DNA of 57,983 nucleotides, counting the filler, from Sluysia triapertura (taxonomy: Eukaryota), in the NCBI GenBank assembly GCA_046118255.1. It is 4 parts of 4 records of this genome, joined end to end, with 100 filler letters (N's around TTAATTAATTAA, not from the genome) between each part and the next. Parts side by side here need not be neighbours in the genome. Positions count along the whole stretch, not along the records: positions 1 to 14,888 come from JBJNIA010245431.1; 3 more parts are not named here. One strand, 5' to 3'. Positions 2,641-43,596 of this stretch are shown here, piece by piece. How positions within the stretch are numbered: the stretch's first letter is position 1; each line of letters starts with the position of its first letter. The notes below the pieces were generated by a model that worked only from the letters and a program-made list of their open reading frames with translations, had not been told where the DNA came from and did no database searches. The position numbers and the translations under genes were made by a program.

Positions 2641-3819
2641 CACATTGTTAGCCTTTTCTGTGAAAAAACTAACAATTATGATTTGTAAATAAACGTGTTC
2701 GTCTGTATATTGCACTTTACGTCTGGCCGAAGACGCAACTACAGATAAAATGTGAAAATAATTTAACGCTCCTTACAAGCAGAATTCTTTCAATGTAGTA
2801 ATTAATTTTTTTACTTTATTCCTTTCTGTAAGCTCTCACCTAATATATTTTAAAAAATATACTATTAAGTCGATATTCTTAACGCAAAATTAACGTAATG
2901 TCTTTAATTTCTTAATTAACTTAATATATTTATTTAAAAAATTTATACTCCAAGTTTTAATACTATTCTTATTAATTTTAAAACTCTTTACTCTATCTTT
3001 TTGTGAAATGAAAAATTACAAAACACCAAATTTTTATTATAAAATTGAATAATATAATAAGTAATATATAAAAAATGACATATAATATAATGCAATAATA
3101 CTTTAAAAATAAAGGGTTTAAGGTTTATTTAATTTTTAGATTTTAAAAGTTTAATTGATCCAGGTGTGATAATTGGCAATAGGTTTATAAGATTTTGAGT
3201 ATGATTTTGACACAATAAATTATTTATGTGGAAACTTAATAATTATCAACTTACGTTTACTAAAAATTCGATACGTCCAGATTTTAATTTCCCGGTAGAT
3301 GAATGAATCATTCGATTAATAGCTCCAAAAATTGATAATTTCCAGATTATAAAATGCAAATTCTTTTAGATCAATCACTTTAAATCATTTTCCAGCGATT
3401 CCAACAAGAACTTTCTTGCAAATTAACTTTTATCAACGTTGCTTTATTAAATTTCCACAAAAATGATCTCTTTATATATGATAATTATTTTGACGAGAGA
3501 AAAATTTTATAATCATTTTATTATTTTTAATATCATTAAATATGCATAAAAAATCATATAAAATTCTTTTATGGGTCCATAAAATATGAAATTAAAATAT
3601 AATTCTTTTGTGTTTATAAGATTAAAATATGATATTAAAATATGAAAATTCTTATTAAAAATATTTATAGAATTAAATTAAAAAGATTTTATTTTATTAG
3701 ATATTGAAAATAAATTATTTACAAGTTTACAAATAAAAATTAAAAATTATTTACAGAATAAAAATTTACAAACACAGTTTTATTCACTTTTACTCTTTAC
3801 ACAAAATTAAATCTAACAT

Positions 3820-3837
3820 TGGTGCCCGAAGAGAGGA
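3820..3837 (+). promoter_or_regulatory. Primer-binding site (tRNA-Lys(UUU)-like) directly after an LTR-type end
   Basis: ...ATCTAACA(3818) T TGGTGCCCGAAGAGAGGA; the first 11 nt match the tRNA-Lys3 PBS TGGCGCCCGAA at 10/11 positions. Confidence 0.7.
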
Positions 3838-4165
3838 TACTCGATGCACATCCATAAATTATAAAATATAAAGTTATAGTAAGACTATCAAAAGTGTTCA
3901 CGAGAGATTTTAATTTTGAATTTGTATTTTTATCTTTCATATTTAGATAGTGAATCTTAGAAATCGTATTAATTCAGATTTAGATCTTAGAAGTCGTACT
4001 AATTATAATTCAGATTCAGATAAAGAAAAAAATTTATATTTGAGAGCGAAAGAAAGAAGAAAGTAAAACCTAAAGATAATAAATAATAAACAAATAATAA
4101 TAAATAAAGATAAACAAATAATAAGTAAAGAAAATAAATTCATAGAAACCATATTTAAGAAGAAA

Positions 4166-5340
4166 ATGACTGATAAGATTATTACAAAAGAACAAATGGC
4201 GCAGCTTATAACCGCAATGAATAGACATCTATTAAATCAAAATCTGAAGATTGAAAAATTTTCAGGAAACGAAAACAAATTGTTAGACTTTTTAACCGAG
4301 TATAATGAAGAGGCAGACAACTTAGGCTGGAGCAATAGAAAAAAATGTTTGAAATTTGCATCATGCATAACTGGCCACGCAGCTAATGTCTTTAAATTCT
4401 TATCAGATGCAGCAAAACAGGAATGGAAAAAATTGAAAGTTGCTTTTATAAAAGATATAGTGGGGGATGACATAAACGACTCTTCAGAGAAAGAGTACAA
4501 CAACGTGATGAAACAGTGGCAGAATATTCATACCAATTAAGGATCCTAGCAGAAGAAGCATATCCATCTAAAACAAATGATGAGGAAAAACGACGAAAGA
4601 TTGATAAAAAGCTCACACAAAAATTTATTAAAGGAATAAAAAAGAATATTGGAATAATGTTAACAACATCTAATACCGAAGGATATCAAGAAACATTAGA
4701 AAAGCAAGAGAACTGGAGAAACAAATCAACGAAAAAGAACACATATAAACGCGATAACTGAAGTAAGTAAGACTATAAAGGAGAGATCCAGATCTCCAAT
4801 TTTAAAAAAAGTGAGTTAGCATGAAACACCAAAATCAATAATAAAAGAACAAATACATAGATAAAAATCAGCACAAAGTAATAATGAATTTAATAAATTT
4901 AATAAACCATTCGAAAATAAAATTAATCATAAATTTTATGAAAGTAATAGGCAATTGCAACACCAAGAAATAGTTATCCAACTCAATTTCCTAGAAGAGA
5001 ATCAATTACCTAGATACGTACCACCTAATAATTAGCCACGATCGCCAAGAAACTATAATCCAGGATACAGACATTTGAATTATACACCGTGAAATTAACA
5101 ACCAAATTATTATTCAAGGAATGAACCATCAAATTATCAATCAAAGTACTACCCAAGAAATATACAATTAAGTTCAAGATATAGACGAGCAAGTAAATCT
5201 CCAAACAGAACTCAATTTTACAATGATAATAATGATAAAACATCGATAGAAAGAAGCAAAGTAGATATATACGAGGAGAATCACTGTAATCACTGTAAAA
5301 CGTACGGACACTATGAAAAGGCGTGCCCAGAATACTCATC
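4166..5340 (+). pseudogene. gag: Retrotransposon gag (capsid plus CCHC nucleocapsid), frameshifted
   Basis: IEKFSGNENKLLDFLTEYNEEADNLGWS...ITGHAANVF...WKKLKVAF; VAEYSYQLRILAEEAYP...KFIKGI; zinc knuckle CNHCKTYGHYEKAC at 5285-5326. Confidence 0.88.
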
Positions 5341-6639
5341 AAATTTTCCTTTAGATGGAAAAAACCATGTTTATATGTTGAAGGATAATAAAAGCGAACT
5401 GACACCAGATTACGCTAGGATGGATGACGAAGCTTGTTGTGCATTGTATCAAAGAGAAAAGGTAGATAAAAAGGATGAGGAAGAAAAAGAAAAAAGAAAT
5501 CAAATGGATAACGGATTCAGAGGAGCATCAACACATGATGGCGAAGAAAACGATGATACTGATGATGATCTACTAGATACACCCAAGGCAAAGGCTGCTC
5601 AGGAAGGAACAAGAGAAATATTAATAAAATAAAACTTGGAACTTTGAGTAAAAAATATAGAGAAGGATTATTTAATGCCTTAAGAGAATTTATAATCGAA
5701 AAGGTTGAAATTGATTTAACAGAAGAAATGAGAGAAACGTTATTAAAAATAATTAGATGACAAAAATTTAATGAACACGAAAAGAAATATGCGAAAACTA
5801 TATTAAGAAATTATGGAAAACATATGAGACATAAAAATCCCAATCGAAAAATAAAAGCAGTATTACAGTTACCATAGGAAACTCGAGTATTGAAAAGACA
5901 TATTCATACAACAGGAAGATTTATTAGAAATAAAGTTATAGGAGAAATAAATTGCTACGGCATACAGATAAAAATTATGTTTAATGAAGAAGAATTAGAT
6001 GGTGACGATAAAATTGTAGATTGTGGATATCCAATTAGAGAAAATCATACAGAAAGAATAAAAATAATAATAGAGGAAAAGGATAATTTTTTAGAATAAA
6101 TATTAGGGGAAGATTGAATGAAGAATTATGATACAATAAATAATAAAAATATGGAGATACTATCAATAAACGATAACTAAATAGTCGACAACCAAATAAA
6201 TGCTAATCGAATGGACAGTAATCAAATAAATAACTATGAACAATAACCAGATAAATGATATTAAAGTAAAGGATAACCAAACGAATGATAATCAAACAAA
6301 TAATAATCAAAAAGAAAACATGCCAAATAACGTAACTAAGGCTTGAAAAGAAGTTGAAAATACATTGTTTCCAGAAGAGGTGATAGATCTAGATGATTAT
6401 GTTACATTTTATGAGCTGTTAAATAGAATAGAGAATGATAATACAGTTAAAGATGATAATTTAAAGAAAAAAGAAAATAAAACTGGAAACTGAAAGAAAA
6501 TGATAATGATGAAATACGAGAATTAATAAATAAAATTGAAAATGTAGTAAAACTAAGTATTGAAGGAAATAAGCTGTTAAATTCGAACTTATTAGGAAAA
6601 CAAATAGATCAAACAGTAATCACTCAAAACTTTCAAAGA

Positions 6640-8404
6640 TTGCTAATGAAAATTTTAATTTTATGTGGAATCAAACCAACAGTCATCCAGAGATCGGAAA
6701 TAGTTTCTCATTAGTAAACACAGATAATTGCCCAGACACTAACAAATTTATTTAATTTAGGGAACGAAATATTTCATGTATACGAAGAAAGTGGATTAAT
6801 ACGCACAGAGGTTAAGGAATGTGTAGTTAAGCGAGCTGTGAAGTTACAGTAAAGTTCCATGCGGTCAACATGGAACGGTTTATCCATTAAAAAAGAGAAC
6901 TCCTTTCATAGCGTTAATAATGTCCACAGAGACTTGCCTAGAAACTTTTCAAACTGAAAGAATAGGGATAAAAAGTGATTTAATAATTGAAGTAAAAAAG
7001 GGCATTATAAAGTACTATCGTTATTTTGCTGTAGGAAGTCACACGAAAGCAGATACGGATTTTTTACGGACGGAGATTATAATTTAGATGGAGTAACCTA
7101 TAAAACATGATCGCGACCGAATATTATATGACTGAACTAAAAACTTGGAGTGCGACTTTTGACTCGAGTACTAATAATATGATACAGGCACCAAACTGTA
7201 AAATAACGAATATAATTTGTGATACCGGAGAGTCTGTACTATTTTATAAAGTAAACAGATTTGAATGCTCATTAACTCATTTAAAAACATCAATGTTTAA
7301 CCAAACTAAAGGATTTATAAATGGAAAATTAGACGCAACACAAATTCTAAATGTTGAAAAAAGTAATAGAAACATACCCGACTACAAATCCCAGAAATAG
7401 AAGCACCAACTATTATAATGTCTACGAAATCAACAGATGGGATGGTGTTCGTCCTGAAAGAGAAAGTGACTAAGTGTGCAGAAGAGGTAATCAGCACAAA
7501 TTATCCTTGGATATTTGTTAGAAATCGACTACCAATCTCAAACGCAAAAACCGAATTAGTAGCTAGTGATGTGCAATTATATAACTATTTCAACAATAAG
7601 ATTAAATTTTATTACCATCTTGGATTGACTCAGTTAGAAAAAATTTACCAAATTCTAATGTACCGAGGCTGTCAATTAAATAAAGAATTAATAAGAACGA
7701 TTACTAACCCCGATATGGTAGCACCATTATTACTGTTGAAAGATGGAGTATTTGGGAAATCTATGAGAGAAGAGTCACGGTAAAACTATATGATAACATT
7801 GAATGTACGAAGAAGTTACCTGTAGAATACAATAACGAAAAAGATATATAGAACCAGTGACTAGAATTATAGTCCCTAAAGAAAATAAAGTCAAAAAACT
7901 AGATTGTTCAATATTAGTGTCCCCACTATATAAAATGCATGAAAATTATTTGATTTATCTATCATCGAGAATAAGAGTAGAATCTCCTCCAGCTCTAAGT
8001 TTAATAGATTTTAGTTTTCAAACGGAGAATGATATTTCGGAATGTATCAAATATCTGATATAAAGAAAGCTTGGAATGAAATATTATTAGCAATAAAAAG
8101 AGCACGAATATTAATCGAAATACTAGATGCTGCATTACCAAAAGGCGCTAAAGCACCTAATTACGAACTACCATCAACACAGAAGCACTTTGAACAAGCA
8201 GCGAAACAAACACTGCGTAAGATTTGGGGAAAATTTGCAGTCATTGGACAATTATGTTCGGGTCGCATCGAGATTTATATTGTTATTAAAGCCATTATTA
8301 TAGTGTGTACTCGAGTGCTATCAACTTACAATATATATCGGCTGAATATGGAGAATCATCACGGTATTGATCCCCTCCAAAGGTCATCATGTAGTGAGCC
8401 ATAA
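6640..8404 (+). pseudogene. env: Envelope glycoprotein, class III fusion type (chuvirus-G / herpes gB-like), fragmented
   Basis: Hydrophobic signal-like LLMKILILCG at ~6640; CKITNIICDTGESVLFY..C; NYFNNKIKF...LEKIYQILMYRGCQLNKELI..NPDMVAPLLL; ECTKKLPVEY..YIEPVTRIIV..DCSILVSPLYK; C-terminal WGKFAVIGQLCSG..IYIVIKAIIIV TM segment. The motif order matches chuvirus-type glycoproteins as I recall them. Confidence 0.75.
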
Positions 8405-8599
8405 ACATGCTGAAATAATACAAGAACTATCAAGTCCAAAAGCTCCAAAGAACTTTATTAATTATGAGAAAACTGGCGAGGTGATGGAAAATGAGGAATC
8501 TCTATATCCATTCAAAACTGTTGAAGAGATTCAAAACGAAAATAATAAAATAAATCCTATCAATAGAAAAAAATGTTATTATTTAAAGAAACACTATAA

Positions 8600-8890
8600 T
8601 GGCTATAATATCTACCAAAAAATATTAGTAAATAAATACTCTATTAAAAGACACAGAATCACAAGTTTTTGCAATTCGTTATAAATCTCTACCAACAAAA
8701 GATTAGGAAAAAATAATAATCAACAATGACTACCTAGAAGGAATAAATGGAGAGCTGATAAGCGTTAGAAGTTTCTTGGCTTATGTAGAGATAGTAAATC
8801 AAAAATGGAGAACAAGAATTTACATTTTAGATGAATGTTCAGAAAAAATGGTAATCTGTATGGACATACTACAGCAATTAAAAGACGTAA
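8600..8890 (+). pseudogene. Retropepsin-like aspartic protease domain 1 (degenerate)
   Basis: DTESQV at 8650 (D-T-G equivalent), LEGING flap, and C-terminal MVICMDIL (IxGxDxL-type motif). Confidence 0.65.
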
Positions 8891-9129
8891 TTATACATCC
8901 AACTCAAGGATTGTTAACACTAAGCGAAATAAAAGAAATTGCAACTGATCTAAACGTAATCACTATTAATGCAAATTCTATTGAAAATTTAGACATGATT
9001 TAGACAAAATATTCTAATGGAAAATGAAGACAGTTCTGAGATGGAAAATTTATCTAATACCGCGATTGATACAACGTCATCTGACAACATGTCAAATATA
9101 ACAACAACAGATAATTTAACAAGTAAAAT

Positions 9130-9450
9130 TACATTAGAAGACATAGCAGAATTACAGGAAGAGGTAATGATTTTGGAACAGAGAAACGATGAAGAGATAA
9201 TGAATATTATCAATAACATAACAAAAATATTTTCTCTAACTATCAAATTCAGAATATTTTAAAATACAAAATGGAAGATAAATTCTTAATTGTAGTATCC
9301 CAATCAAGAAACACCATCATGGCCACCATCATGGCGGGCTACCTTTCAGCGAAAAGAACCACTGAAAGGATAAAAATAAAGTATTATTGGATCAATATGG
9401 ACTGCGATATCACAAATTGGTGTAAAACAGTAAAATGTGTAATTTCTGGA
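9130..9450 (+). pseudogene. RNaseH-integrase linker plus integrase zinc-binding (H2C2) domain
   Basis: EQRNDEEIMNII...LIVV...AGYLSAKRTTERIKIKYYWINMDCDITNWCKT.KC matches GH.G..KT..RI...YYW..M..DI..W...C..C. Confidence 0.8.
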
Positions 9451-9529
9451 AGGAAGTGATAAAGGAGCAAATTAAACATGAAAGTATGCAAGATGATGAT
9501 CGCGATAATGCTAAGAAATGGAGTTAACT

Positions 9530-9800
9530 CCTTATAAATTGTAGCAGTGTGTAATAATTAATGGAAAGATAGATAGATACGGGTTCAGACGTAAGTATTA
9601 GACGATATGAAGACATACCAGAACAAGAAAAGATAACTTTAATAGAAGTACTTGAAAAGTTCGACAGAGTCGACATGGTATTTAATCGATGGAGAGTAGA
9701 AATTAAAATTGAACAATATAACTTCCACATAGAGATAGCAATAGTAGGCAATTGTCCAGAAGAAGTAATAATTGGAATTAGAAACGTTTCCGGAAATACT
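9530..9800 (+). pseudogene. Retropepsin-like aspartic protease domain 2
   Basis: IDTGSDVSI at 9573-9599, then ...VEIKIEQYNFHIEIAIVGNCPEEVIIG. Confidence 0.75.
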
Positions 9801-10574
9801 TATAAAAAGGAATAAAATTAAAAATAGATTAAAGAATCCAAACACTATAGAAATTCTACCAAATAAAAATCAGCTTATCTTTCAAGAAAGAAGACGATAT
9901 AAATATATGTTTAATGGATGAGATCAATATATAGAATCGGAAGATTTATTACAGAGATTAGAAAACACTTGCAAAAAACCCAAAAAAATATGAATAAACT
10001 GGAAACTACGGTCAATATCACGAAATCCTTTATAATTATATGCGATCTGAAACACAGACTAAACATAATAATACAAAATTGACCATTTCATCAGAAAAAG
10101 AAAATATAGAATTCTTCAGTAACATGGTAAACATGGAAATGAATTGGTTTTGAAGAACTAATATGAAAGTTGTAATGAGAATAGATGGAACACAAAAAAA
10201 TAGAAAAGGAATTTCATATCCAGTATCATATTTACTGGATTTCGTAAAAACATACTTGAATACAACACAAATAATAAATTTTCATTATAGAGGAAGAGTA
10301 TTGAACCGAGACAATGGACTATATTTAATTGATTTAGGATTTCCAATAAACTATTTGAGCGGCGATGATGAAATTACAATTACAATTGGTAGCGATGAAA
10401 ATAGCGATCCTAAATCTTCTAATGAAACACAAATACATTTAGAAACCGTAAATCGGGAATTCTATTGTGAGGTGTTTAGAGAATTATCAATAAAAAAATC
10501 AACAACGAGAAAGACTGTTACACACCGACTCACTTATTAGTCAAAACATGATGAGACGGAGAATAAATTATAAG

Positions 10575-10830
10575 AATAAATTTTGCATAACAGTAGAATT
10601 TAAAGGGAAAAGTTATAAAGTAATACTAGATATGGGAGCAACACATTCAATAATTAGATATCAAATTCTAAATGACAATATAAGAAACAAAATCATATTG
10701 TCGATTAACTATAGCTTCCATTACTGGTAGTCAAATTATTTTTATAGGAAAATTGGAAAGAGAAATTTCAATATCACAAAAAATCATTAAATGTAAAGCC
10801 AGAGTACTGTCTATACGATATTATAGAACA
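10575..10830 (+). pseudogene. Retropepsin-like aspartic protease domain 3
   Basis: FCITVEFKGKSYKVILDMGATHSII (LD[T]GATHS motif, Asp at 10629), then TGSQIIFIG flap after a frameshift. Confidence 0.75.
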
Positions 10831-11569
10831 AATTCTAGAGATATTAATGCAAAAGGAAGCTGAACTATGGAGCAGAAAAGAAGCACTTCTAAACGAAGGA
10901 AGACTACTAATGTTCCACAAAACAGAACCAAGTCCACATTAACATAATCATCTATATGAAGAATTAGAAAATGCATTAAGAACACCTGGAAATGTAGAAA
11001 GGCTAAAAAGTAGTAATTGATATCGTTTTAGAATCAGAAGAATTATTACATGAATATCCACCTCTTAAACATCAATTAAATGGCATCCCGCTTTTACTTT
11101 TGATGTCTGTACTTTTTATTTGATTCTGCCCCAACTCCTTTACCTTCATTCTATATGTACCGAGTCACAATCACAGAATGTGATATTTATTATAGGAAAA
11201 TCTTTAGTAGCTCATACGAATTTACTATAAAATACCGAATAAGAGTGTTGATATTTATCAACCTCCTACTTTTTCTGGCATTGATGTCCTGCACAATGGA
11301 TTTCAGGTGCCAAAATCTGATTATCCACCACGACTGACTAAGTCGCAAAGGCATGATTACAGACGACACCAGCTTAAAAAATTTTATAGAAAAAATGCAC
11401 GATTATGTGAGAATCTTTTCATAAAACAACACTAATTGCTTCCTAAGTATTATTAACTATAATTGTATTAATACATAAAAACCTATATAAAAATTACTTT
11501 TAAAAAATCACTCTTTGTGTATTTTTCCTTTTGTATGTATATTTCAAGTTTTGTTCTTTTTTAGTACAA

Positions 11570-12706
11570 AATCATCACAAATACTACAACAATCTCAACA
11601 TCTTCGTCGACCTCACGCCAAAGTACTTAATCAGATTAGGGCTTTCTATGCGGCGATAGACCGCTTTTGTTTAGAGAACACGACCGCGCATTTTCCCCCA
11701 CTTATTTCGCCACTGACTGTAAGCTGATGTCTGAGCTTACAGACAACTTGGCGACTCATATTTTTTCTTTATCTAGCGCACAAGCATCTATTTCTCTGCG
11801 CGGCCTCTCTAATGCTCCCGAAGTTTTTGATACCTTATATGTGGTTTATGCGCGTGGAATGGTTAGGGTATCTCTGGTGGTTGAAGGGGTTCCACTGTTG
11901 CTGGGCCTGGAGGGTTTGTCAATTTTCTACCAGGTAATGCAATGTTATGGTGGAAGCACTCCAGCTTCCAACATACATTGCCCTTTTATTCGTGCTGCCA
12001 AGAGATCCGTCTTTTCTCCCTCTTTTTTTCCGCAGCGGAAAATACAGATAATATGAACTGTTGGAGAAATGGATCATCTTATACGCATGTTCCATCCCTT
12101 TCTGCGTATGATGAGGACCGTCTCATGTTTGTGGTGTTCCATTGCGCCACAGATTTCTTGAATAATCTTCAGATTATTTGCGTGACTTGCACACCATACA
12201 ATGGCCAATTTGATACTGAGGCTCGCATTAAACCTCGATACAGAACTTCCGCAGGAACAGATGTCGACCTTCGGTTGGCTAAGAATATCGACAAAATCCG
12301 CCCATAAATAACTGGAATTTTGCGCAACAAGATTATGGTGGAGTTAAACCCACAATTTATTATTGACGCTTTGTATATTCCCTTTGGGCTGTTAAAGGAA
12401 ATTATCAATCGGTCGAACAATATTTTGGTCCCTTTTACCACATACGTTGTTTTTTGTAGGACGCGTCAAACATTACGGCTGATTTTCCCTATTTGCTCGG
12501 TGTTGACTTGTCGACAGATGGCCACAGAGTTTGTGGCTCTGTTCCACTATATTAGGGAACGCGATTTACAATTTATTACTAGGTGTAATAATCTCCCTCT
12601 CCTTCTCTTCACAAACCCCTTCTCGACTTATTTCTCCTCCTCTCAAAAAATTAAAACTTACTTCTCATTCTTCTTTTTCTACTTGTTCCTCACCCCTTTC
12701 TCGTAA
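11570..12706 (+). pseudogene. GC-richer accessory ORF of unknown function in the 3' part of the retroelement
   Basis: Chain of plus-strand ORFs (11667-12056, 11942-12307, 12320-12706) joinable by a frameshift and a single stop; base composition differs clearly from the A-rich gag/pol region. Confidence 0.5.
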
Positions 12707-12886
12707 ATTCCATGCATATACGAAGACTCATTTTTATACAGAATTTACCATCTCCTAGACGACTTAGATCCTGTAGACTTAGACTGAGTACCTTTATAAC
12801 TATCAATGATTATTATGTGATTGATTATAATAATAATTAATATTAACTTTGATTTGCGGACAAATCTTCCCGAAAGAGAAAGTATT

Positions 12887-14084
12887 TGTCAGGTTGTAAA
12901 TTTTGTAAATTAAAAAATTTGTATATTTTATGTATTTAAGTTTTATATTCTTAATTTTTATTTTATGCATTTTATTAAATTTTATTAAATAATTATTTAT
13001 CTTATATTAAAATAATAATGAAAAAAATTAAAATAATTATAAACTTAAGAAACTTAAAAAATTAAAATAAAATTGTTGGATAAAAATAAAATAAAATTTT
13101 AATATAAAATAAATTATTTAATTTTAAATAAAATAAAATTAATGTTTTGTTCAAAAGTAATTTTTGTTTTATCTTATCAATTTAATAATTTAGGTAAAAG
13201 GTTAAGATGGCGCTAGCGAATTTAATATAAATAGTTGAGATTTTAGGAGAAGAAACAGAATAAATTTTTAGCGACACAAGGAAATCACAATAAATGTTCA
13301 AGCAAAAAATTCAAGTGAAATTTAGCAAAGTTTGAATAAAAGATTAGATAATTTTATGAAAAAAGGATTTTCAATAAATAATTAATTTTAAATTTCAAAT
13401 TTAGTTTAAAAAATTTTTATTTTAATTTTAAAAAAATTATTTTGTTTTTTTAAATATAAACAAATATTTCATTTATTCAAATATAAAGAAAATTTTGCTA
13501 GGTAGATTTTTCTTTATTTTAAATTTTAAGATTTGTTTTATTACATCAAAAGTAAGATAAGAAATACGAGATGGAGAATTTTAGTACAAATATTTAAGGA
13601 ATTTTAGCAAAAGACAATTTTTTAGCTAAGAAATTACCAAATCAAATTTTTTAGTTTTTCTATGGTGAAGTAATTTTTTAATTAATAAGATTTTAGTTTT
13701 ACCTTAATAAGGAAAGCATAATATTCACTAAAAATATATACTTTTTATCTAGACCGTAACAGGCTAGAGAAACTAAACATAAAATTTGTATAATGAACCA
13801 AGGAAAATAATCCAGTGAGTGTAATTTAAAATTATTATAATTATTATTATAAGTGTTTACTGTGAGTGTTGTTTAACATTGTTTAACAGAAGTCTTCATA
13901 GAACTTTATTTTTACTTTTATAAAATAATTGTGAAAACTAGACCGTACAAGGATAGTGTAAAGTAATAAAAGTCATTTACAAGGCTAGTGTAAAATAGGA
14001 ATTTGTCATATACTAGATCGTAACACGGCTAATGTAATACAAAATAAAATAAAAATATATTTTGTTTACGACGAATATCGTACA
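12887..14084 (+). repeat. 3' LTR (LTR family A); 3' end approximate
   Basis: Follows the PPT, starts TGTCAG, has ATGGCG...TATAAATA promoter block at ~13207-13233 and repeated CTAGACCGTA..GGCTAG hairpins; similar to 19600-20400 and 38151-39062. Confidence 0.7.
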
Positions 14085-14888
14085 GTTTCTTAAGGTTTTA
14101 CATAAACGTAGCTTAGGCAGCCTATTTACTCTTTTGCGGTTCGTTTTTTAAAATCCTAATAGCACGTCTTCCACATTGATATAAACCGTGAACTCGACTC
14201 TTAGATATTATTGTGTAATTGTAAGTTTTTAGCTTTACTAATAAAAAACCCTAGCAATATTTTTAACACTCTTTAAACTTAAAAGTAATTTTAATTATCA
14301 TTTAACATTTTTACTGTCCTTAAGCCGTTTAAATACAAATATAATAAATTAGAACTTCTGCTGCAATATTTAGACGTGTTCTAGTATGCTTTTTGGTATT
14401 GATAAAAATGCGCTTTCAGTTATAACAAAAATATACGTGGTATTCAATATTTATTAGAACGTTTTTATTTTTTAACGAAATTTACAATGTAAATTCTTAT
14501 AATACTAAAACAGTGCGAATAATCGCTTTTTTGTGCAGAAAAAATTATTTTTCCATTCAATACTTATTTTGATCATTAAAAGTGGATTACCATAATGTGT
14601 ATATAATGGAATGCCATACTAAATACAGCTGTATGAATTCATAATGAGCGTAACCAATCACAATATGGTACATGATAGACTTGAGGGCGTTTGATTAGAA
14701 AATGTAGGAAAGTAGTAATAACTTGAGTATTTTAAAAGCTTACATTCACTCCTATTGATCATAGGTAACAAAGTTTTGTAAACTAAGATACAATATCACT
14801 GGATTCCTTCGTTATACTTTAAGGACATTTTTAACTTATAAGATTTAAAATTAGGATTCATTTTGTTATGAGCTGTACTATTATAAAA

Positions 14889-18510: not shown

Positions 18511-19599
18511 TATTCTCACCCAATTCATGGACATAGCTGCAAGATTCATTTTGTTTTATTATTGTTATTGAGTTTAAAAATTTTCAAGCATTCTATTTTA
18601 ACAATCAGGCATTCTCTCACACAAATAATCTGAATGTTCTTTGAGAATGAGACAGACAATAAAAACTTTGACAATTATATGGTACGGTCTTCCAAATCTT
18701 ACTCGGTGCTATAAAGAACTTGATGGCGTAATGAAACTTTACTTAACTCTGACTTGAGTATAAATTCATATTTTTTCCTTATCCCTCAGATTATGTAATT
18801 TGTCTAACTGTCCTACTATTATTTTATTCCTTTTATTTCTGATTTTGTCTAACTCACAGCTGTAAACTTTTAGTAATTTTATCATCTCGTCGATAATTTA
18901 TAATTTTTATTAAACCTTTATTTTTACTTAATTTAAATGCCGGCTTAAAGTTGTACAAACGATTTAGCATTAATTCAATATTCAATTTAACAAACAATAA
19001 ATACATAGTGAACAATGATAACATATTAAATAAACAAAGATCAAATGAAATGTTACTTCGTACATTCTGTCTCAAGCGATGTCAAAATTCTTTGATGAAC
19101 CGAGAGCAGATAATGTTGCGTCTTTAATGTTATTAATAACAATGGATTAATATCATTTCCATTTACTTAAATAGAATCTCAATAATTTCAATACTTACTA
19201 GATCAAATATAAATTATCACAAATTTTCTTATTTTAATAATGATATTTATTCAACCCCAAAATTGCGTTCTTCAATTCATATTAATAACAGTAACTCAAT
19301 AATTTAATAATTACAAAATCAAATACAGATTTCTATTAAAAGTCTCCGCTTTAACAATAATATGAATTAACTAAAAATGACTAAATCTGAGAATTAACAA
19401 TAGTTTTTATAACAATATTAAGCAAACTATAATCTATCCAAAGAAACCAGAGGTGACGCAACAAATATCAAATTGCAAGATATTTCCTCTTATGCAAAAT
19501 AGTTCTGGAGTCTGTCCGACTAACTAGGCACGATTTATATCAAAAGATGACATCCTAATTAGATTTTAAAAAGATAATTAAACAGAATTTAAAGGACTT

Positions 19600-20400
19600 A
19601 AATTAATTAGTTCCTTAAAAAATATAGTTCAGTAAATGAATAAATCTTTCTCGTCAAACTCTTAAAGTACTTGGTTAAACCAGCCTTCGTACGGTCTGGT
19701 CAATAATAATATATGTTAGGCTTTGAACCAGCCTTTTTACGGCCTGGTCAATATATGAAGATTTTAAATAAATATTAAATATGCAAATGAAAAAATTTAT
19801 TATTAAATCAAAGACAATTTAAATTAATAACACTATTTATATAATGTATAATAAAAATACGCAGTCTAGATCTTAAGTTCGACACTTAGATCAAGTTATT
19901 TTAAAAGATTTTAAGTCAGCCTTTTTACGGTCTGACATATATTAAAAAAGGTTGAGTGATATTTTATGTTCTATTGTTTTACAATTAGAACTAGAAAATC
20001 TTATACAGAAATTAATTACTTTTTCATGGAATAATGATTGAAATCTTCAACAAAATTGTAAGAGCAGCGCTGAATTTTCTAGATTGTCTTCTGTGTGTGT
20101 TTTTTCTAGATTGTGTAATGTTATTTATACATAATTTAACTTACTCGCCTCCATATTTTAAAATAGTACATTAAAACAAAAGTTTTAACTTTAATTCTGA
20201 TTTTAATTAATTAAATTTTAACTTAAATTCTGATTTTAATTTATAATACTAATGATAATATTTTATGATTTTAATTTATAATAATAATGATAATATTTAA
20301 ATAAATAAAATGAATATTAATAATGAAATAATAATGTCAAATAATAAAATGAATAGTCAACCATAATAAAATAATAATCAAATAAATAATCAAATGTAAT
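19600..20400 (-). repeat. Solo LTR-like copy of family A (boundaries approximate)
   Basis: Three hairpin motifs (19679, 19727, 19915), AGGTTGAGTG and TTCATGGAA..GAAATCTT blocks shared with 38520-38615, and a minus-strand GGCG..TATAAATA block at ~20120-20150. Confidence 0.6.
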
Positions 20401-20550
20401 AAGATAATAAATATCAAATAATAAAAGGAATAATCACCGAATCCATTAAAATATCATTGTGTGCTAATTGTGTGCCAATTGTATCAGATTGTGCCAAATC
20501 CAATAAACTGTAATGGTAAAATAAGCATAAGAAATACTTGAATTAAAGAA

Positions 20551-21263: not shown

Positions 21264-23119
21264 CAGCAATAATTGAAAAATAATAATAATGTCGGTTTTT
21301 AACTAAGAGAATAGTAACGTTTAATCCTTTAGCTAGATCACGATTATTTCTTCCTTTGTCTAACGTATCATTAATAAAGTGAACAACGTTAATGTTATTT
21401 CTTCCAAAGTGAGAAATATTTGAGACATGAGCTATGTCAAATAAATCATAAAATGTGTGATGAATTTTAGTTTCATTTGGGATTTTTTAAATGCTACATA
21501 ATTTTTGCAAGATCTACATATAACAAAAACAGCTTTATCAATGGTCTTTTCATAAACATAAACATATGAATTTGAATAATATTATTTTTCATGAAACATT
21601 AATTAAATGACCTTTAATGAATTTAAATAATGATAAAGCCACTTTAAATTACTTCTGTTGGGATTAGTGAAAGATAAATATCGATATAAGGGTCAGGACT
21701 GAGGATAATAGAATAAGGTGAATGTTATTGAAGAATTAAGATAAAGTATTATGATGAACTGTAATAGTAAAATAAGCATAAGAAATACTTGAATTAAAAC
21801 AAATTAATGAGAAATATGAAGAAATAACCCTTTAAAAGGTTTTATTTGTTAAAATATTAAAGTTCATTTGTTAATTAACTTAATTAAAATTTGTTTAATT
21901 TGATAATTCAATAAAAATGTTTGCTCATGATATAATAATATTGAGTTTTATTAGTATTTTTAATGATGAAGTTTGCGAAGCTTGTCAACGTTGATAACGT
22001 AATTTATAATTTAATTTTTATAATTTATAATTTATAATTTTTATAATTTAAAATTAAAGTTAAATATAAGAATTAATAATATATATATCAAATTAATGCT
22101 TATAGAGAGACCAATTCAAACATGTTATTGAACTTGACGTGCAACTACAATTGACGCATAACGTATTAATGCGGAATATTCCTTTGAGAAATAAATTTAA
22201 TGTTTCATTAATTTTATCTTTAAATTAAGTTGACAAATTATTAATATAATAACAATATAATAATGATTTTTAATGTTAATTAGATGGTTTCCAAAGGATA
22301 AAGAGATTGTCTACCACAAATCCCATTATCTTAGCATAATTAGAATGATAATGACGTTGAACATAGACGGAAATTGCTGTCAAAATCTATAAAATTGGTG
22401 GACTTATTGGCGTATAAAATAAAAACGACAGCTTTAATTTCCGTCTTGTTCAATTTCTGATTTGTATTTTCTCTAATTATCTTAAAATTGCTATATAAGA
22501 GTTACATTTCTGCAAGAAAAACAGAAGTGAAGCCGACGTTAAGACGGATTAAAGAAAAATCAAATTAATTTTTCAACTGCAGGGAGGCTGCTCTAGTTCA
22601 TTAGTGGATAACGGTGACATTAAAGTTATTTCTTTAGTAATTGTCTAAAATAAACCATTTTCTTTTTAGAACAAGGATTAGTCATACATTTCTTATTGTT
22701 TATATTTTGCATTAATCCGGGTGCTAAAGTTTAAATAAGTTGTATCATCAATGGTTGTGATTTAGCTTTAAAGAATAATTTTCATTTTTATAAAGAGTAA
22801 TTTGTATTGTCATAGTTATAAAGAGTAGTTTATATATTTTCGCTGTAATCTTGTGATAATATAAAAAATATATCGAGATTTTGAATTTATTTAGTTATTG
22901 AGTTTTAATTTAATAAGTTTAGGAAAATAAAATTATTAAAAGACACAACGGTTCCGTAAACCTTTCTAGCCTCTGGATATTTCTGATAAAAGTCAGGATG
23001 ACTGCTAAATATTAACCCTTTGCGCGATTAATAAAAAAGAAAATAATTATTTTCAAGATTATATATACTTATTTGGTTTATAGTAAATTGTGTTATCAAA
23101 TTGTAAGTAAATATAATTT

Positions 23120-23731
23120 CTAGATGTTTTGAATCTCAGTATTTTTATCTAATCGACCATTTCTAAGTAAAGCAGGATCTAATATATCTACTCTGTTAGT
23201 ATCTGCCATTACTTTTATATCATGATTTGGTTGGAATCCATCTAAGTGATTTAGTAATTCCAACATAGTACGTTGAACCTCACGATCATTAACTTCCATT
23301 GCTTTAACGCGTGAATCAATTTCAGCAGGTAATTTTTCTAAAATTAAATACGAATCTTTATTGACACCAACTAAATCGCCTGGTTTTAAATCAGATGCTT
23401 CAACTAAACCTATTATTGGTAGAAAATAAGTATGTCTAGTACTGGTTTTGACTACAGCACATTTACCTTTTCTCTGGGCATCTAAATCAAGGTTACTACC
23501 TTCTTCTTCATCAGGGTCAGGTTCAACATCCAATAATTCTATCACATTTGATACTAAATAAGACAGAGCTTTATTTGATTTAATTTTCCTTTTATTTTCT
23601 TTAATTATATCTTGCTAAGTTTTCGTTTCATGATTAACATGTGTTAATTCAGATTTCATAATTCTAATTTCAGTTTCTAATAGCCTTATTGGATTTGAAA
23701 GATCATCGTTTGATATTATTAATTCTGCCAT
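23120..23731 (-). pseudogene. PSMC3: 26S proteasome regulatory ATPase 6A (Rpt5) pseudogene with internal deletion
   Basis: RLLETEIRIMKSE...[11 protein letters not shown]...[24 protein letters not shown]...SRVKAMEV joined directly to [17 protein letters not shown]...[12 protein letters not shown]. In-frame TAG at 23617-23615; Walker A and B are absent; C-terminus truncated. Confidence 0.92.
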
Positions 23732-25301
23732 GGTAAAAAATATAGTATAGCATTGGGGAAAAACATTGAAGAAAAACAAAAAAATAGAAAGACGGATTAA
23801 AAATAAGGATAAAAGAAATAATAATGATAACAATAACATGGTTATTATATTTATTAATACTGAAGTGTTTATGTTAAAATTTATTATAAAAGTTATTACT
23901 TGATAATCATGTTATATAACAATAATGACAATAACTATTATATATATTTTAATACGATCTGAATTGTAATAACAATAACGGTAGATCATGATAATTAGAT
24001 GCGATGATCATGCTTTGTTTTTTGAATGAGTTTAGTAGTTTGTTTAATAGTTTGTGTACATGTGAAGTGTTTTTATGTGATGAAGTGTGATGAATTCCCT
24101 AGAGATGATATTTACAATTATAAATAACAAGAAACGGTTATTAAGACTACTTACATATCCAAATATAATATATGTATACTTATCTATTTTTAACCATGAA
24201 AAATGATTCTATAAAAAGTAAAAAGTCAGTTACAACTCCAGGTATATGTAAAAGGAAACACCAGGTAATAAATTTTAAAATATAAGTTAATAAAACGCGA
24301 ATCGAACAATCTCTAAACTAACTTGAATATCTTGAATATTTCTTCGAATTCGATCACGAGAATTATCCGGGGATTCCGTTACTTCGACATGTAGAGCCTG
24401 AAGTTCGTTTACCTGAAACAAAACAATGACTGAAGTGCATCTTTTGAAGACTGATTAATATTAATTTCGTCTGATTTTAAAATGAATATTTATTATTTTA
24501 GAGAATCATAATAATTAAAAGTGAACAATGTTTAATTAAAAATAACCTGATACAGGAAACTGGGAATAAGTTACTATGGAAACAGTATCTAACTAAACCA
24601 TTATAACCAAGAATAAGCATGTATGAAATATTGACATATTAGTACAGTTGATGAATGACTGTTTCTCCATGAAAAAGAAATTGATTGAAATTACAGTAAC
24701 CGAATAGTTAGAGAAAACTTATAATAAAAGGAGAATGCAATACAACGAAACCTATTGGCTACAATGGATAGCAAAATAGCCAATGGTATAAAAAAGAAAA
24801 TTTTTAGTCTATATACGTAGATCAATTACAATAAGACAAAAGATGTCTCACGATATTTACAGAGGAATTTAATGACAAAGATCGATTTATTCAACATTTT
24901 GAAAAAAGAAATTAATCATACGAAGATGTTACTGTATCGAATTTTATTTTATTATTTTTTTAAAAAGAAAACCATAACAATAAGTGGTAGCTAAAACATA
25001 TTTTTGTATAAAAAATTTATTTGTGTTGTGTATTTATTCACAATAATTCAATAATGAAATTAGTTTAAAATATCTTAACATTTGTATCACTAAACAGGTA
25101 CAAATTATTGCTTATTCTTTGATAATAATATACTCTTAATATTCTCAGTTATAAATAAATTAAATATAACACAATCAAATAACAAAATACAATTCTAAAA
25201 ATCCAGCGGTAACACTACACGTAAAATGTATTTAAAACAAATGTATAAAAACGTGGATTAATTAACAACAATAATAAAAATAACATCACTCTAATATTTA
25301 A

Positions 25302-28109: not shown

Positions 28110-28676
28110 TCATTTTGTTTTTCTTTGAATAAAATTTTTTACCTGTTCTAATAACCAGTCAAAACCTTGCTGCAATCCTTCTCCAGTTAAGGCATTACTA
28201 GATACAATATTCCATGTATGATCTTTAACTTCATCAAGACATAGAATTTGTGTACACTTAACACTTGTTACTGCATCTTTGGCATCCATTTTATTAGCAA
28301 AAAACAAAATTGGTACTTTTCTTAAACCTTTATCACTTAATATAGTGTCTAATTCATCCTTTGCGACCACCATTCTTAAATGATCAGAACTATCTATAAC
28401 AAATATTATTGCATCACTATCTTTAATATAAGTATTCCACAAGTTACGATAACGACCTTGTCCACTCATATCAAAACAGGTTAAGTTTAAACCTTTGGTA
28501 CAAATTTTTTCTACGTTAAAACCAATAGTTGGTACTATATCATGACTCTGGATATTTGGTGGTTTTATTTTATTTAGAATAGTAGTTTTGCCACTATTAT
28601 CTAAACCAACTACTAAAACTTTAGCTTCTTTTTTACGTGCACCAAAAAAGCTAATAAGAGATTCCAAAAATCCCAT
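28110..28676 (-). CDS. ARL6: ADP-ribosylation factor-like protein 6 (BBS3), intronless
   Basis: MG N-terminus, [14 protein letters not shown], the ARL6-diagnostic [40 protein letters not shown] and GEGLQ.G.DWL. Confidence 0.95.
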
Positions 28677-30555
28677 ACGAATTATATCATAATTATAGAC
28701 ATCAATGTTACAAAATTAAAAACTTTAATAACAATACTTAAGTATTTGTAAAAATAAAAATCATTATGGTAAATATATAAATTGTAAAAATGTATTAATC
28801 TATATTTCACAAACTATTATAAATACGTCTCGTTGCTAATACTAATAGTTAAAGTATTTTAACTACTAAAACAAAGAAGTCTTATTCATGAAATGTTCTC
28901 TACATATGATATTCTGGCGAACTTGATGACCATTTTAAAGTCAGACTAATTAAATTTTAACGAATTTTTATAAAATATAATTTTTATGTTTAATGAAAAT
29001 AAAAATAAGAAAACAGTGCAATTTACAAGAATATAATAAATTCTAGATAAATGCCCCTGACTTGTAAATGATGAAACAAAGAATTCGAGTGTATGTGATC
29101 TGATTCATGAATTTTGCTATTATGAGTATTAGGTTGTCAAAGATGAAATTTGACTAAAAGGCAAAGTTAATTGATAATTTACAAATATAAGGAATATTTT
29201 TATTCATCAAAGTATGCACCAATATTGTTGCTCAGGTTGGTGGTATAAATGAATTCCTGGAAGACCTGTTTTACATCATTGTCAGATTTAAATTGTTATC
29301 CTATTAAAACGTCCAGATGTGGCAGTTAGTGGAAGCTAGGTGTGGTTAGTATGGATGATAATGAAGAAGTTCCACTTCCAATTAAAGTATTTTCTGTATT
29401 CGCTTATAAAACTCATAAATTTCATATAATGCATGTGCTAATGTGGTGCGTAAAATGTAATATCAACAATGAATTATTATCAAAAATCAATACATAGTAG
29501 ACAAAAGAAGTGCTTTTGAAAAATTTCCTTACGTTATAGTTATAAACATCTCTGTTTACGGAGGTTTTATTCAACACGGTTCTTACTTTAGTTATAAATA
29601 ATGCCTAATTTCTAGTGGAGAAAATAATTTTTAATTTAGAGTCTATTATCCAAATACGAATGAAGTCATTGTACTAAAAATGGAAGAATAGAGTAAAATC
29701 AGAATAAAATCAGAATTTTTATGTTATTGCAGTAACTTTAAACTAAAATTAGTCCATCTAGGATATGAATAAAATTAAAATAATCGTAACATCACGTAAG
29801 TTAAATTATGTGATAAAATTATTGCAGAGAATAAAAATTAGTAAAAATTTTAAAAACTTAGTTTTCAGCAGTGTTTAATTAAAATGAAGCATTTTGTTTT
29901 CAATCACAACTCGAAACACTGCAATAGCCGTAAATCATAAAATAATTTTATCAGATGCCATTCAAAATTTATTAATGATAAAAATCGAAATCAAACCTTG
30001 GAGATTTACGTCTTTTACAACAATAAATGCTACTGAAATGATTGCATAATTGTTTAATTTTTAGTAATTTTGATGATCAAGTTACTTTACTTAACTTTAT
30101 TAAAAAATCACCGATGTCAGACTGTCAGTCAAACACTCATTTTTGTGAAAAGTTAATGGGTATATTGTTTCAATCAAAAAACACAGAATTCGAAACATGA
30201 CTTGGTAGTATTTCTATAAATGAATGTCCAATTATGCGTTCTTGTTTACTATTCTAATGTGAGAATGTTGCTCAAAAATATGGTAGTTAATGCGTATAAA
30301 TTAGTAACCGATCTACATAAGCACGAACCATAAGAAGGTTTTAAAAGAAATATTATAGATATATTTAGAGAATTTTTAGTTGTAATTGAAGTGAAATACT
30401 AATTCAACGACATTCAATACCCTATGAATCTGACACCGTAAATACTTCGTTTCTCATTATATTTGGCCTATAAATCATGATATTGTAATAGTTAAACCTT
30501 TTGTTAGTTTTTCATATTTTGTATTGTTAATTTGTGTACTTAGAAAAATCATTTG

Positions 30556-30710
30556 TGTTAGACATCATAAAATAGGCTGACCGGGGATCGAACCCGGGAC
30601 TTCTCGTGCGAAATTTTAATGCTCCATCACTGAGTTATCAGCCCGTCTAACAATTTTTAGATTACTATATTCAATTATACCAAATGTCATCTTAGGCCTA
30701 TATCCCAACA
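30556..30710 (-). mobile_element. tRNA-cassette element (complete copy, 155 bp) with 4-bp TSD
   Basis: TTTG|TGTTAGAC...GTCTAACA(30652)...CCCAACA|TTTG. The minus strand has acceptor GGGCTGA/TCAGCCT, A-box TAACTCAGTGA, T-arm CCGGG-TTCGATC-CCCGG and TTTT. Confidence 0.88.
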
Positions 30711-30760
30711 TTTGTTTAAATATTAAAGTAGTAAAATTATTAATAATAATATATTAATTT

Positions 30761-30822
30761 ATATTGCGCGCATATTTACTACAAAGTAAGTACTCAAAAG
30801 CACTTAAAGTAAATCATTCACC
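30761..30822 (-). repeat. Fragment of dispersed repeat family B
   Basis: Reverse complement TGAATGATTTACTTTAAGTGCTTTTGAGTACTTACTTTGT matches 43731-43770 and ~39341-39380. Confidence 0.8.
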
Positions 30823-30915
30823 TGTTGGGGTAAAAGGTCTAAAAAGTGCCAAGTAGTATAATTGAATATATTAAAAATGAAATTGTTAGACGGGGCTGAT
30901 AGCTCAGTGGTAGAG
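30823..30915 (+). mobile_element. tRNA-cassette element, truncated by contig end
   Basis: TGTTGGGG...GTATAATT...TGTTAGAC GGGGCTGATAGCTCAGTGGTAGAG (canonical A-box/D-arm), abutting repeat family B. Confidence 0.85.
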
Positions 30916-32505: not shown

Positions 32506-34901
32506 AATAATTTATCACAATTTCAATAAAATACACATTACCAAAATAATTTAAAATAATATATTCATAATCATTCGAATATTAATATTACATCACTATA
32601 TATTAAATATCAAATATTATATCATAAGGTAATGTTAAAAAGCTATTAAATTTCTATTTAACAAATACTTCCTTTAATTCAATTACGATAACTATTTTGA
32701 ATTGAGTAAATGGTAATACCAATAAAGAAACTTATTTACTGAGATATTTGCATTGCGTCAATAATACCTGCATGTAAGTTAAATATATTTAAAGCGAAAA
32801 GTCAATAATTAGAATATAAAAATAAAATCTGAAAATGTTTAAAAGTTTGAATAAATAATCAAAATTTAGTAGACCTTAACACAAGAAAACATTCATTGGT
32901 TAAATTTAGTTAATAGTTTAAATAAGGATTTTACTTCACGGAATAAAACATTTGTTTTGTTCGATAAAATCATATTGCATTATTTCATTAAGTACTTTGA
33001 AAATTAAACAATCAAAATTTTTAAAAATGAATTTGAATGATTTAACAATTATTCAAATTTGGTTTGCTTCTTTGATACTTAATACTTAAACTATTAAAAA
33101 TAATTATAATTGATTACAAAATATATCCAAAACTGCAAATTTAAAAAATTATTTTATATGAACCCAGTTCGAAACATTTATCAATTTTATTAATAAATTA
33201 AGATATTATATTAGATGTAAACAAAATAAAATACGCCGTTTATTTTCTGTCATGATTGTTTCATTCTATTTATTCTTTTGTGCTGAAAGATATTTAATAA
33301 ATAACATTTAAGACTAATGAAATTAATTTGTATAAAATGCCAAAATGCACCTTTCTGAACATAAAATATTACACTTGCTACAAACTTCAAACATATTAGT
33401 GAATAATATTGACGATATAAATACCTCAAAATTTTGGCATTAATTACAAAAAACTAAAGTTTTCAAAAAGCAAATCATTAAGTTGTTAACTACTCTTATT
33501 ATACTTTAGATATTAAAGTTTTTTTATAAATTTTATTATTAATTATATTGGAACTTATCTAATTTACAACAAACTAGTACTTTCTTAAATATGGAATTAA
33601 CGAATCAACTAATTCATCTTGGAAAGCTGCTAAATCTGCTGACTCGCTTCAAATATAAAATGAAATATACTAATTAAAATTTTACCGTTTTGATGGAAAA
33701 GCTTCGGCTTGTAAACAAAAAGTTAGCATTCCTACAATAACTACGTAAATAAAGCTGGACATTATCAATAATATAAGAAATAATCTTTTTGATTTCTATC
33801 TCATAATTTTAAATAACAAAGTATATATGTAATTCTAATCCAATTAAAAATTAACTAAATATTAATAAAAATAATTCAGTGTGTTATTTTTAGTTGTTCG
33901 TTTATTAGTGAACTGTCGATTTTGATCAATGAAAATAAGTTAATTATTCTAATATAATTTGTCTAGATATACCATATATAGAGTTGTTTGTCACTATCCA
34001 AAATAGTCAAAACACTGCCATCGGTATTAAAAGTGAATTTGAATAAAAGCGAATGACTTGTATTTAAATATTCAAAACTGTTGAGGTTATGTTAAACCTC
34101 TCAAGTCAATATGACAATTATTGTGCTGGCAGTATTGAATTTCTACTTGAACAACATTCATATTTTGTTTTGATTGTTTCAATTAATTATACTTGGTAAG
34201 ATTTTGTTTATATTTTTGGATAATCGATAATTAAATTTAAATAATTATTTTTAATGTTTTCATATTAAACCTAAATATTACTTATAGTTAGATGAAAATT
34301 TCATACATTCATTGTTTCAAATAAAAAAAGTGTATAAATCATTGCTTTAGCCATGTTTATTGGTTATAAATCACAACTTACGATTAGTTTATGATATTAA
34401 AAAGATACCCGATTTTATTTTCATTACTATATTATCATTACTCTATTGAATTTTAAACTCTTATTTATTACTTTTACTTATTTTAAATATGATTTCGTTT
34501 CACTTTATAATGACTTGGCTAGATTGTGTGAAGAAAATTTTAAATAAAATACTTTAAATAAATATTTAAATAATTAATATAAGTAGTCATATTAAATACT
34601 TTAAATAAATAATTTTTAAATAAAAAAAATCTGAAAATAGGAAATAGATTTTTCATAAAATCAAAAAGGAGGTAAAGGAAAACTAAAAAGAAAATAAGAA
34701 AGAACGGCTTCCTAAAGAGCTCTGCCTAAAGAACTTGTCACTCAACATAAATATGTATCTTAATGATAGACTTCATTAAATGGACTGACTGGGATTCGAA
34801 CCCGGACCCTCTTACCTCATAGCTGTGCAGTTCAATGCTCTGACCGCTAAGCTAACAAACCAACTAACAATTTAATTTTATCATAATCAATTATACTAAA
34901 T

Positions 34902-39062: not shown

Positions 39063-39214
39063 TTTGTTGCCAATAAAAGCAAGAGTAAATTCAAATTATT
39101 ATAATCATCTATAAGGCTTACATTCATGAATATCTCGTGGAAGGAATAAAATTTAGAAACAAAAATGAATATATTTAAGACAATAATTTATATGAAATCC
39201 AAAGTGATAATAGA

Positions 39215-43591: not shown

Positions 43592-43596
43592 TAAGA

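Follow-up and report, generated by a model that had tools for sequence, protein, structure and literature searches.

Three diverged LTR-like repeats of Sluysia triapertura (A1, A2 and A3; together family A) each hold an array of small hairpins in which a bulge, a short upper stem and a loop start are kept while the stem sequence changes, and it is very probable that this hairpin is selected as a structure. The consensus hairpin is 21-25 nt long. Its lower stem has 5-6 bp and is separated by a purine bulged on the 5' side from an upper stem of 2 bp, which closes an A-rich loop of 6-8 nt that starts with GUA. The analysis draws on three copies and 12 countable hairpin slots in one window, by which we mean the whole stretch of DNA analyzed (57,983 nucleotides; all positions count along it, Table 1).

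Table 1. Positions of family A, its hairpin slots (HP0-HP4) and the features upstream of A1.
Feature	Positions	Strand	Remarks
Gag-env-protease element	3820-11100	+	Ty3/gypsy type, decayed; precedes A1; TGG resembling a PBS at 3820
ORF-x	11211-11435	+	short frame, basic Arg/Lys/His-rich stretch; within high-depth contigs
ORF-y	11640-12706	+	broken orphan gene, ~350 codons; directly 5' of A1
Purine-rich tract	12870-12882	+	just 5' of A1; putative polypurine tract, judged from its sequence
LTR-like copy A1	12888-~14256	+	starts TG, purine tract directly before; alternative 3' ends 14268 or 14308
TATA1 block, A1	13205-13233	+	AAGATGGCG then TATAAATA; decayed second copy 13569-13592
HP0 remnant, A1	13691-13715	+	arms partly kept, loop missing; covariance model E 0.8
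HP1, A1, intact	13748-13768	+	5 bp, bulged A, CC/GG, loop GTAACA; -8.0 kcal/mol, z -3.5
HP2, A1, decayed	13937-13957	+	one mismatch
HP3 remnant, A1	13975-13990	+	3' arm only
HP4, A1, decayed	14012-14033	+	U.G and C.A
TATA2 block, A1	14147-14190	+	TTTAAAATC..CACGTCTTC..GATATAAACCGTG; best-conserved part of the repeat, 0/1000 shuffles in all three pairwise tests
LTR-like copy A2	~20300-19474	-	5' end approximate
HP0, A2, intact	19968-19991	-	6 bp, bulged A, TT/AA, loop GTAAAAC
HP1, A2, intact	19915-19936	-	
HP2, A2, intact	19727-19748	-	bulged G
HP3, A2, intact	19679-19700	-	
LTR-like copy A3	39062-37992	-	1071 nt, TG...CA
HP0, A3, intact	38544-38568	-	6 bp, bulged A, TC/GA, loop GTAAAAAA
HP1, A3, decayed	38495-38514	-	
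HP2, A3, decayed	38312-38332	-	
HP3, A3, intact	38259-38282	-	
HP4, A3, decayed	38218-38238	-	
HP1 acceptor-like context	13720-13756; 19928-19964; 38506-38542	+; -; -	

The seven hairpin sites quoted in an earlier, sequence-only reading of this DNA were all recovered where it had placed them, and the core R-CC-GTA-N3/4-GG, when flanked by four Watson-Crick pairs or more, was counted five times in the window (bulge positions 13753+, 19931-, 19743-, 19695- and 38276-) and not once in any of 200 dinucleotide shuffles. Within 13748..14033, the hairpin at 13748 is intact as described, and those at 13937 and 14012 deviate by one mismatch and by a U.G and a C.A, respectively. The earlier figure of three to four copies per LTR has to be raised to four to five slots per copy, including the overlooked HP0, which sits 53-54 nt upstream of HP1. 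Seven slots are intact and 5 of the 12 are decayed, as expected of old insertions; two further slots are remnants, both in A1. Slot spacing is conserved among A1/A2/A3 (HP0-HP1, 53/54/53 nt; HP1-HP2, 189/188/182 nt; last hairpin to TATA2, 161/154/164 nt), HP2 and HP3 lie 48/51 nt apart, and typical slot spacings are about 53, 185, 50 and 43 nt. Among sequencing-run contigs aligned to 2800-14880, two skip 41 nt between 13966 and 14008, approximately one hairpin unit, which fits a unit-wise gain or loss of hairpins. Beyond this skip, the 40 of 1109 variants and 15 of 212 joints listed include no change at hairpin stems and no LTR-to-PBS joint.

The hairpins can be found by shape. We used a descriptor that leaves the stem sequence free (at least five Watson-Crick pairs, a bulged purine, two pairs and a loop of GTA plus 3-5 nt) and that was derived from these same sequences. 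Seven of its eight matches in the window fall inside A1, A2 and A3, all in LTR sense, and these copies make up 3599 of the 115966 strand-bases; the eighth match is a stray, AT-only one. Local shuffles (n = 200) gave a mean of 0.83 matches and a maximum of 5. When all 64 loop-start trimers were compared, GTA alone was enriched in the copies, with seven matches versus at most one for any other trimer. Furthermore, a covariance model trained on the ten HP1-HP4 copies picked up the untrained HP0 of A3 (E 0.034), with the next non-element match at E 0.13.

The stems covary. HP0 of A2 and HP0 of A3 share no stem sequence with each other or with HP1-HP4, at identical geometry, and 5 of 8 pairs differ between the two intact HP0 copies, all of them compensated. 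Same-slot comparisons yielded compensated versus other changes of 5/0 for HP0, 3/0 for HP1 and 1/0 for HP3. A neutral simulation produced at least five changed pairs in 0 of 1099 both-intact HP0 outcomes and at least three in 9 of 2342 HP1 outcomes. The seven intact copies comprise six different lower stems, two or more types of Watson-Crick pair occur at each of the seven pair positions, and the loop-closing pair is C-G in six copies and T-A in one. In the ten-copy alignment, for which the relatedness of the copies is uncontrolled, there are seven cells with two-sided change (0/500 shuffles), covariation is 0.365 (3/500; slid controls at most 0.143) and the percentage of paired positions is likewise matched by 3/500 shuffles; pairs-with-change (27/500) and pair-type (47/500) are not significant in this uncontrolled alignment. 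Across the 12 slots, the 96 pair cells divide into 77 Watson-Crick, 7 G.U, 5 A.C and 7 other.

A bulged purine and a GTA loop start had been named as kept in the earlier reading, and both are: the bulge is retained in all 12 slots (A in 11, G in one), and what stays constant is the bulge, an upper stem of 2 bp and a loop led by GUA. The CC/GG pair, also taken to be fixed, varies: the intact copies carry three upper stems, CC/GG, TC/GA and TT/AA. The case for structure is stronger because the upper stem varies, and structural selection is stronger than the first reading saw.

Arm-to-arm copying is an established way to obtain two-sided changes without selection. Hence, the hairpins might be a neutral by-product, with template switching at quasi-palindromes homogenizing the arms and tandem duplication multiplying them, and HP2 and HP3 inside one copy are indeed near-identical. 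Such copying would erase the bulge, however, which is kept in 12/12 slots, and it would fix neither the loop start nor the slot spacing. A variant of this explanation holds HP1 to be constrained mainly as a 3' splice site: a branch-point-like CACT(Y/A)AA, a pyrimidine tract and a YAG precede HP1 in 3/3 copies, the AG lying within the 5' arm of the hairpin, but HP0 has no AG. We consider the neutral explanation, in either form, to be highly improbable. The HP1 context itself could possibly be a cis- or trans-splice acceptor gated by the hairpin.

The earlier reading spoke of a selected RNA structure. The HP0 covariation and the sequence-free descriptor back a selected single-stranded structure; the preference for RNA over single-stranded DNA comes from folding. 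In a 300-nt context, each of the seven intact hairpins folds on the sense RNA, with pair probabilities of 0.56-0.99. On the antisense strand, two of the seven fall to 0.25 or less and four fold about as well as on the sense strand. DNA folding energies are under half of those of RNA, and the wobble counts (7 G.U versus 5 A.C in 96 cells) show no strand preference. RNA rather than DNA is thus favored by the predicted folding, with moderate confidence.

Covariation does not separate RNA from DNA, and LTR DNA is transiently single-stranded, so hairpins of single-stranded DNA might serve reverse transcription, in strong-stop DNA, in pausing or in strand transfer, or cruciforms might form. The outer stems still form as DNA (0.55-0.90 on the sense strand), but the energies do not go beyond -0.4 to -3.9 kcal/mol, the upper stem of 2 bp often fails to form (0.26-0.94), and recognition of RNA by a protein fits the conservation of the bulged A and of the A-rich loop. 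We therefore regard single-stranded DNA hairpins as very unlikely. Enhancer repeats in U3, that is, palindromic transcription factor sites in double-stranded DNA, have even less in their favor. Tandem factor sites are common in U3 and AG-R-CCGTA...GGCT is common to hairpins of the HP1-HP4 type; yet the HP0 stems are unrelated in sequence at exact geometry, and the bulge and GTA are the sole invariant letters. With three unrelated stems in A2 alone, a site in double-stranded DNA is unlikely, and the variability of CC/GG, with only the bulge, the 2-bp upper stem and GUA kept, argues in the same direction; enhancer repeats are largely refuted by HP0 and hardly credible. Two further candidates were dropped: a SMAD-type DNA site, as HP0 is without AGAC, and a hammerhead, as Rfam gave no match.

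An RNA hairpin has to lie in a transcript, and the nature of the repeats bears on this. With good confidence, we take A1, A2 and A3 to be LTRs; in the preferred reading, they have diverged from one another and belong to a retroelement of Ty3/gypsy type whose host is a long-branch invertebrate. The copies are homologous and approximately 70% alike over aligned columns. Whole-length scores of A1-A3 and A2-A3 are above shuffled controls, that of A1-A2 is not, and a stringent scan by local alignment does not single out A2 against either of the other copies; for the hairpin block and the last block of the repeat, 0/1000 shuffles reach the score in all three pairwise tests. Each copy has the same order: an AT-rich stretch, ATGG(C/A)G with TATAAATA (TATA1), TTCYATG, HP0-HP4, a block ending in GATATAAAYCGTG (TATA2), 67-79 nt and a terminal ..GCA. 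A1 additionally has an internal duplication of about 360 nt (13230-13590, +) of the AT-rich stretch and the ATGGCG/TATA block, the second copy being decayed. A3 begins with TG at 39062 and ends with CA at 37992, A1 also starts with TG, and the homology of the three copies stops at ..GCA. Past this point, homology between the copies is not significant (248, 749 and 660 of 1000 shuffles), and a longer LTR was therefore not adopted. CAAA flanks A3 on both sides (about 1% by chance, a rough hand estimate with the end chosen after the fact), and A3 is probably a solo LTR with a 4-bp target duplication; for A1 and A2, a target-site duplication was not found in the window sequence. A1 has its TG start right after the purine tract, as a 3' LTR would. 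A paired LTR or PBS was not found beside any family-A copy in the window. A separate 45-nt direct repeat (20503-20547 and 21754-21798, +; 96% identical) begins near TGTAAT, its first copy abuts the approximate 5' end of A2, and it possibly represents the ends of another element.

Two TATA-containing blocks frame the array. In TATA1, TATAAATA is located at 13226 (A1), 20129 (A2) and 38697 (A3), and the preceding AAGATGGCG is presumably YY1-like. The first TATA1 copy of A1 scores above all shuffles against A3 (0/1000) and is not significant against A2 (615/1000). TATA2 is found at 19541 (A2) and 38069 (A3), and the GATATAAAYCGTG pattern has three matches in the window, all in the three copies, versus 0.16 expected. 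A hairpin over TATA2 common to the copies was not reproduced in three single-sequence folds, and the TATA2 pattern has no match in viral and prokaryote collections. An AATAAA follows TATA2 at 14240, in A1 only. The array had been described as lying downstream of the TATA block, which is true for the TATAAATA block (the nearest slot, HP0, is 115-144 nt downstream of TATA1); it lies 154-164 nt upstream of the better-conserved GATATAAAYCGTG block. TATA2 may be either a promoter or a poly(A) signal. A TATA1 promoter with a TATA2 poly(A) signal would put the array in a long R, and a TATA2 promoter would put it in U3, where the HERV-K RcRE also sits according to the accessible text of PMC6916052; the odds are about even. 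In a 3' LTR, the array is part of the element RNA whether it belongs to U3 or to a long R; hairpins outside any transcript are therefore excluded by the LTR placement, if the repeats are LTRs.

For animal Metaviridae LTRs, the available sections of PMC3601003 report a poly(A) signal that is better conserved than the TATA box and a long R that retains stem-loops, which would fit a TAR-like nascent-RNA element. Here, TATA1 would be the promoter and TATA2 the poly(A) signal of an R of about 600 nt, and a protein bound to the array in the 5' leader would boost elongation or suppress premature polyadenylation in the 5' LTR. TATA1 agrees perfectly with the TATA consensus, TATAWAWR, in 3/3 copies at 115-144 nt upstream of HP0, and the homology ends only 67-79 nt after TATA2 (UAUAAA), with GT/T-rich sequence behind the latter. 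Against this stand the position of TATA2 within a conserved stretch of 45 nt that contains an E-box/CRE-like core and is closer in appearance to a core promoter, the AATAAA that A1 has of its own 60 nt past TATA2, and the duplication of TATA1 in A1, as U3 enhancers are often duplicated. Moreover, a TAR-type element is normally found at +1, whereas the hairpins lie 100-500 nt in. A TAR-like role is possible, although we lean against it.

A decayed element of the Ty3/gypsy type precedes A1. It comprises a weak Retrotrans_gag match, a CCHC knuckle, an integrase zinc finger, two or three protease-like pieces and a Monjiviricetes-fusion env in two pieces at 7370-8404 (E ~1e-8). RT was not found in 3820-11100, and neither a word search nor viral contigs yielded a relative of the env piece. 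Summed contig depth is very high over the element and drops about tenfold near 11666, a depth that is not a copy number. The element may represent a non-autonomous family that has been rearranged and has retained gag and env. Its upstream end shares neither sequence (score 43 versus 49 shuffled; 109/1000) nor a hairpin with A1, and the owner of family A is unproven for this reason. Between this element and A1 lie two orphan frames. The basic stretch of ORF-x, which we take to be reminiscent of arginine-rich RNA-binding peptides, has no Pfam or Atlas match and makes ORF-x a candidate RNA-binding peptide, as a lead only. ORF-y is interrupted by a frame change near 12010-12030 and an in-frame stop at 12305-12307; it is T-rich, with a GC content higher than that of the A-rich retroelement. 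Both its halves match one distant 365-aa protein, with no second relative and no Pfam or Atlas match; the predicted structure of this relative (pLDDT 33.6) is unusable. ORF-y is possibly a captured or accessory gene.

The rest of the window contains a decayed non-LTR retrotransposon (RVT_1, zf-RVT; 35400-37400, -) and a dispersed repeat family of 75-180-nt pieces, 77-87% alike and in both orientations (30622-30903, 37373-37450, 39208-39432 and 43592-43770). Sequences resembling tRNA occur at 34761-34858, 48727-48824 and 30573-30644, two of these places being scored by Rfam and not by ARAGORN and one having an 86% identical second copy; a tRNA-derived SINE is possible. Host genes are compact and comprise a HAD hydrolase (1118-1918, -) containing a 30-nt intron, an intronless ARL6 (28110-28715, -) and a proteasome ATPase copy that looks decayed (23120-23911, -). 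The ARL6 protein is 55-63% identical to molluscan, annelid and vertebrate proteins alike, none of the named proteins being a close relative, and the host is an AT-rich animal.

What the array binds and does can be proposed only weakly. We give an even chance to an iterated protein-binding site on the genomic RNA for an export or packaging RNP. The stem of free sequence would act as a scaffold on which a protein meets the bulged A and the GUA loop, and repetition at fixed spacing would provide avidity or let the protein oligomerize on the RNA. Being in the 3' LTR, the array would be carried in the full-length RNA of the element, and the recruited protein would be encoded by the element, either as Gag or Pol or as the adjacent orphan accessory protein, and would build the genomic RNP for export and packaging. 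Retroviral packaging signals are usually near the 5' end, which counts against such a docking site, as does the unproven owner of the LTRs. Naming the partner more closely, it is rather unlikely that the MS2-like array of bulged-A/GUA hairpins is bound, for export or transactivation, by a protein of the same element, either ORF-y or the basic peptide of ORF-x. If true, an invertebrate Ty3/gypsy-type element would have regulation in the style of complex retroviruses, and Metaviridae would have an analogue of Rev/RRE or Tat/TAR in the form of a compact RNA-protein pair that is new.

Alternatively, a host RNA-binding protein could read the hairpins for stability, translation or germline localization of the element RNA. 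Conservation of the motif among LTRs with only about 70% similarity would suit a host protein that evolves slowly, the 3'-UTR position fits as well, and retrotransposon RNAs use host localization signals such as the I-factor ILS (PMC13186709, in part). However, the Egl-BicD signal as given in the accessible text of the same source has two helices of at least 6 bp with bulges on the 3' strand, whereas the family-A hairpin has an upper helix of 2 bp and a bulge on the 5' strand, and the motif occurs in no host gene of the window, with one stray AT-only match among eight. A host binder thus appears unlikely.

For LTR retroelements of invertebrates and for errantiviruses that bear env, the selection, export and packaging of RNA are poorly described in comparison with yeast Ty elements and retroviruses, and the array, as a docking site, would bear on these steps. 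A shape-defined motif of 21-25 nt that is kept at fixed spacing despite about 30% LTR drift is an unusually tractable handle to probe, to mutate and to use as bait for a binder. Furthermore, the hairpin is a structural marker for finding and classifying highly diverged LTRs that sequence search misses, as exemplified by A2.

Among known systems, HIV TAR is a bulged stem-loop in an LTR as well. TAR has a pyrimidine bulge and is present once, at +1, whereas family A has 4-5 copies with a purine bulge. In the MS2 operator, two pairs separate bulge and loop as in the family-A hairpins. Its stem is likewise of variable sequence and carries a bulged adenosine (PMC4403262, accessible part). The operator requires an ANCA/ANYA tetraloop, in contrast to the 6-8-nt loops with GUA start, and is single in a phage, whereas family A forms an array in the LTR of a eukaryotic retroelement. 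Of the MS2/PP7-operator-like or TAR-like architecture that had been proposed, the hairpins show the MS2 geometry of a lower stem, an A bulged on the 5' side and an upper stem of 2 bp; the MS2 tetraloop and the features of TAR and PP7 are absent. The L-A encapsidation signal has a loop that differs from the family-A loop. In the L-A/M totiviruses, a protruding A and the pair next to the loop are essential and one or two copies lie in the 3' non-coding region, as far as the accessible text of PMC5666360 describes it. L-A is a dsRNA virus of yeast, whereas family A has 4-5 copies with C-G or U-A as the loop-closing pair; no totivirus gene was seen in the window.

Among retroelements, HERV-K RcRE is a structured RNA in the LTR U3, present only at the RNA 3' end (PMC6916052, in part), and a possible accessory ORF is near family A as well. 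Rev-type elements are large branched folds in the accessible text of PMC10746203, in contrast to an array of isolated 21-25-nt hairpins. The order of gag, Monjiviricetes-fusion env and protease in the neighboring element is shared with GAG-ENV-POL Ty3/gypsy errantiviruses with gB/chuvirus-type env, reported from Nematoda, Bryozoa and Platyhelminthes; the main text of PMC13524379, in its accessible part, does not describe LTR stem-loops, and the neighboring element is decayed, without RT found and with an unproven link to family A. Troyka was set aside for its CG...CG termini (PMC12440569, accessible part). Rfam gave only the two tRNA-like matches, outside the hairpins, over the whole window at gathering score, and no match in 19400-20200 at E <= 5. 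The double-hairpin pattern has no match in viral contigs; 58 metagenome loci with this pattern (37-76% GC) were judged to be chance or coding repeats, none having a TATA2 block beside the hairpin pair. A published description of the motif was not found in the literature searched, which left most subscription papers out of reach. Structured cis-acting RNA in retroelement LTRs is known, and the bulged-A/GUA hairpin array itself is undescribed in the literature searched; by analogy, it would work like the MS2 operator or the L-A signal as a member of neither.
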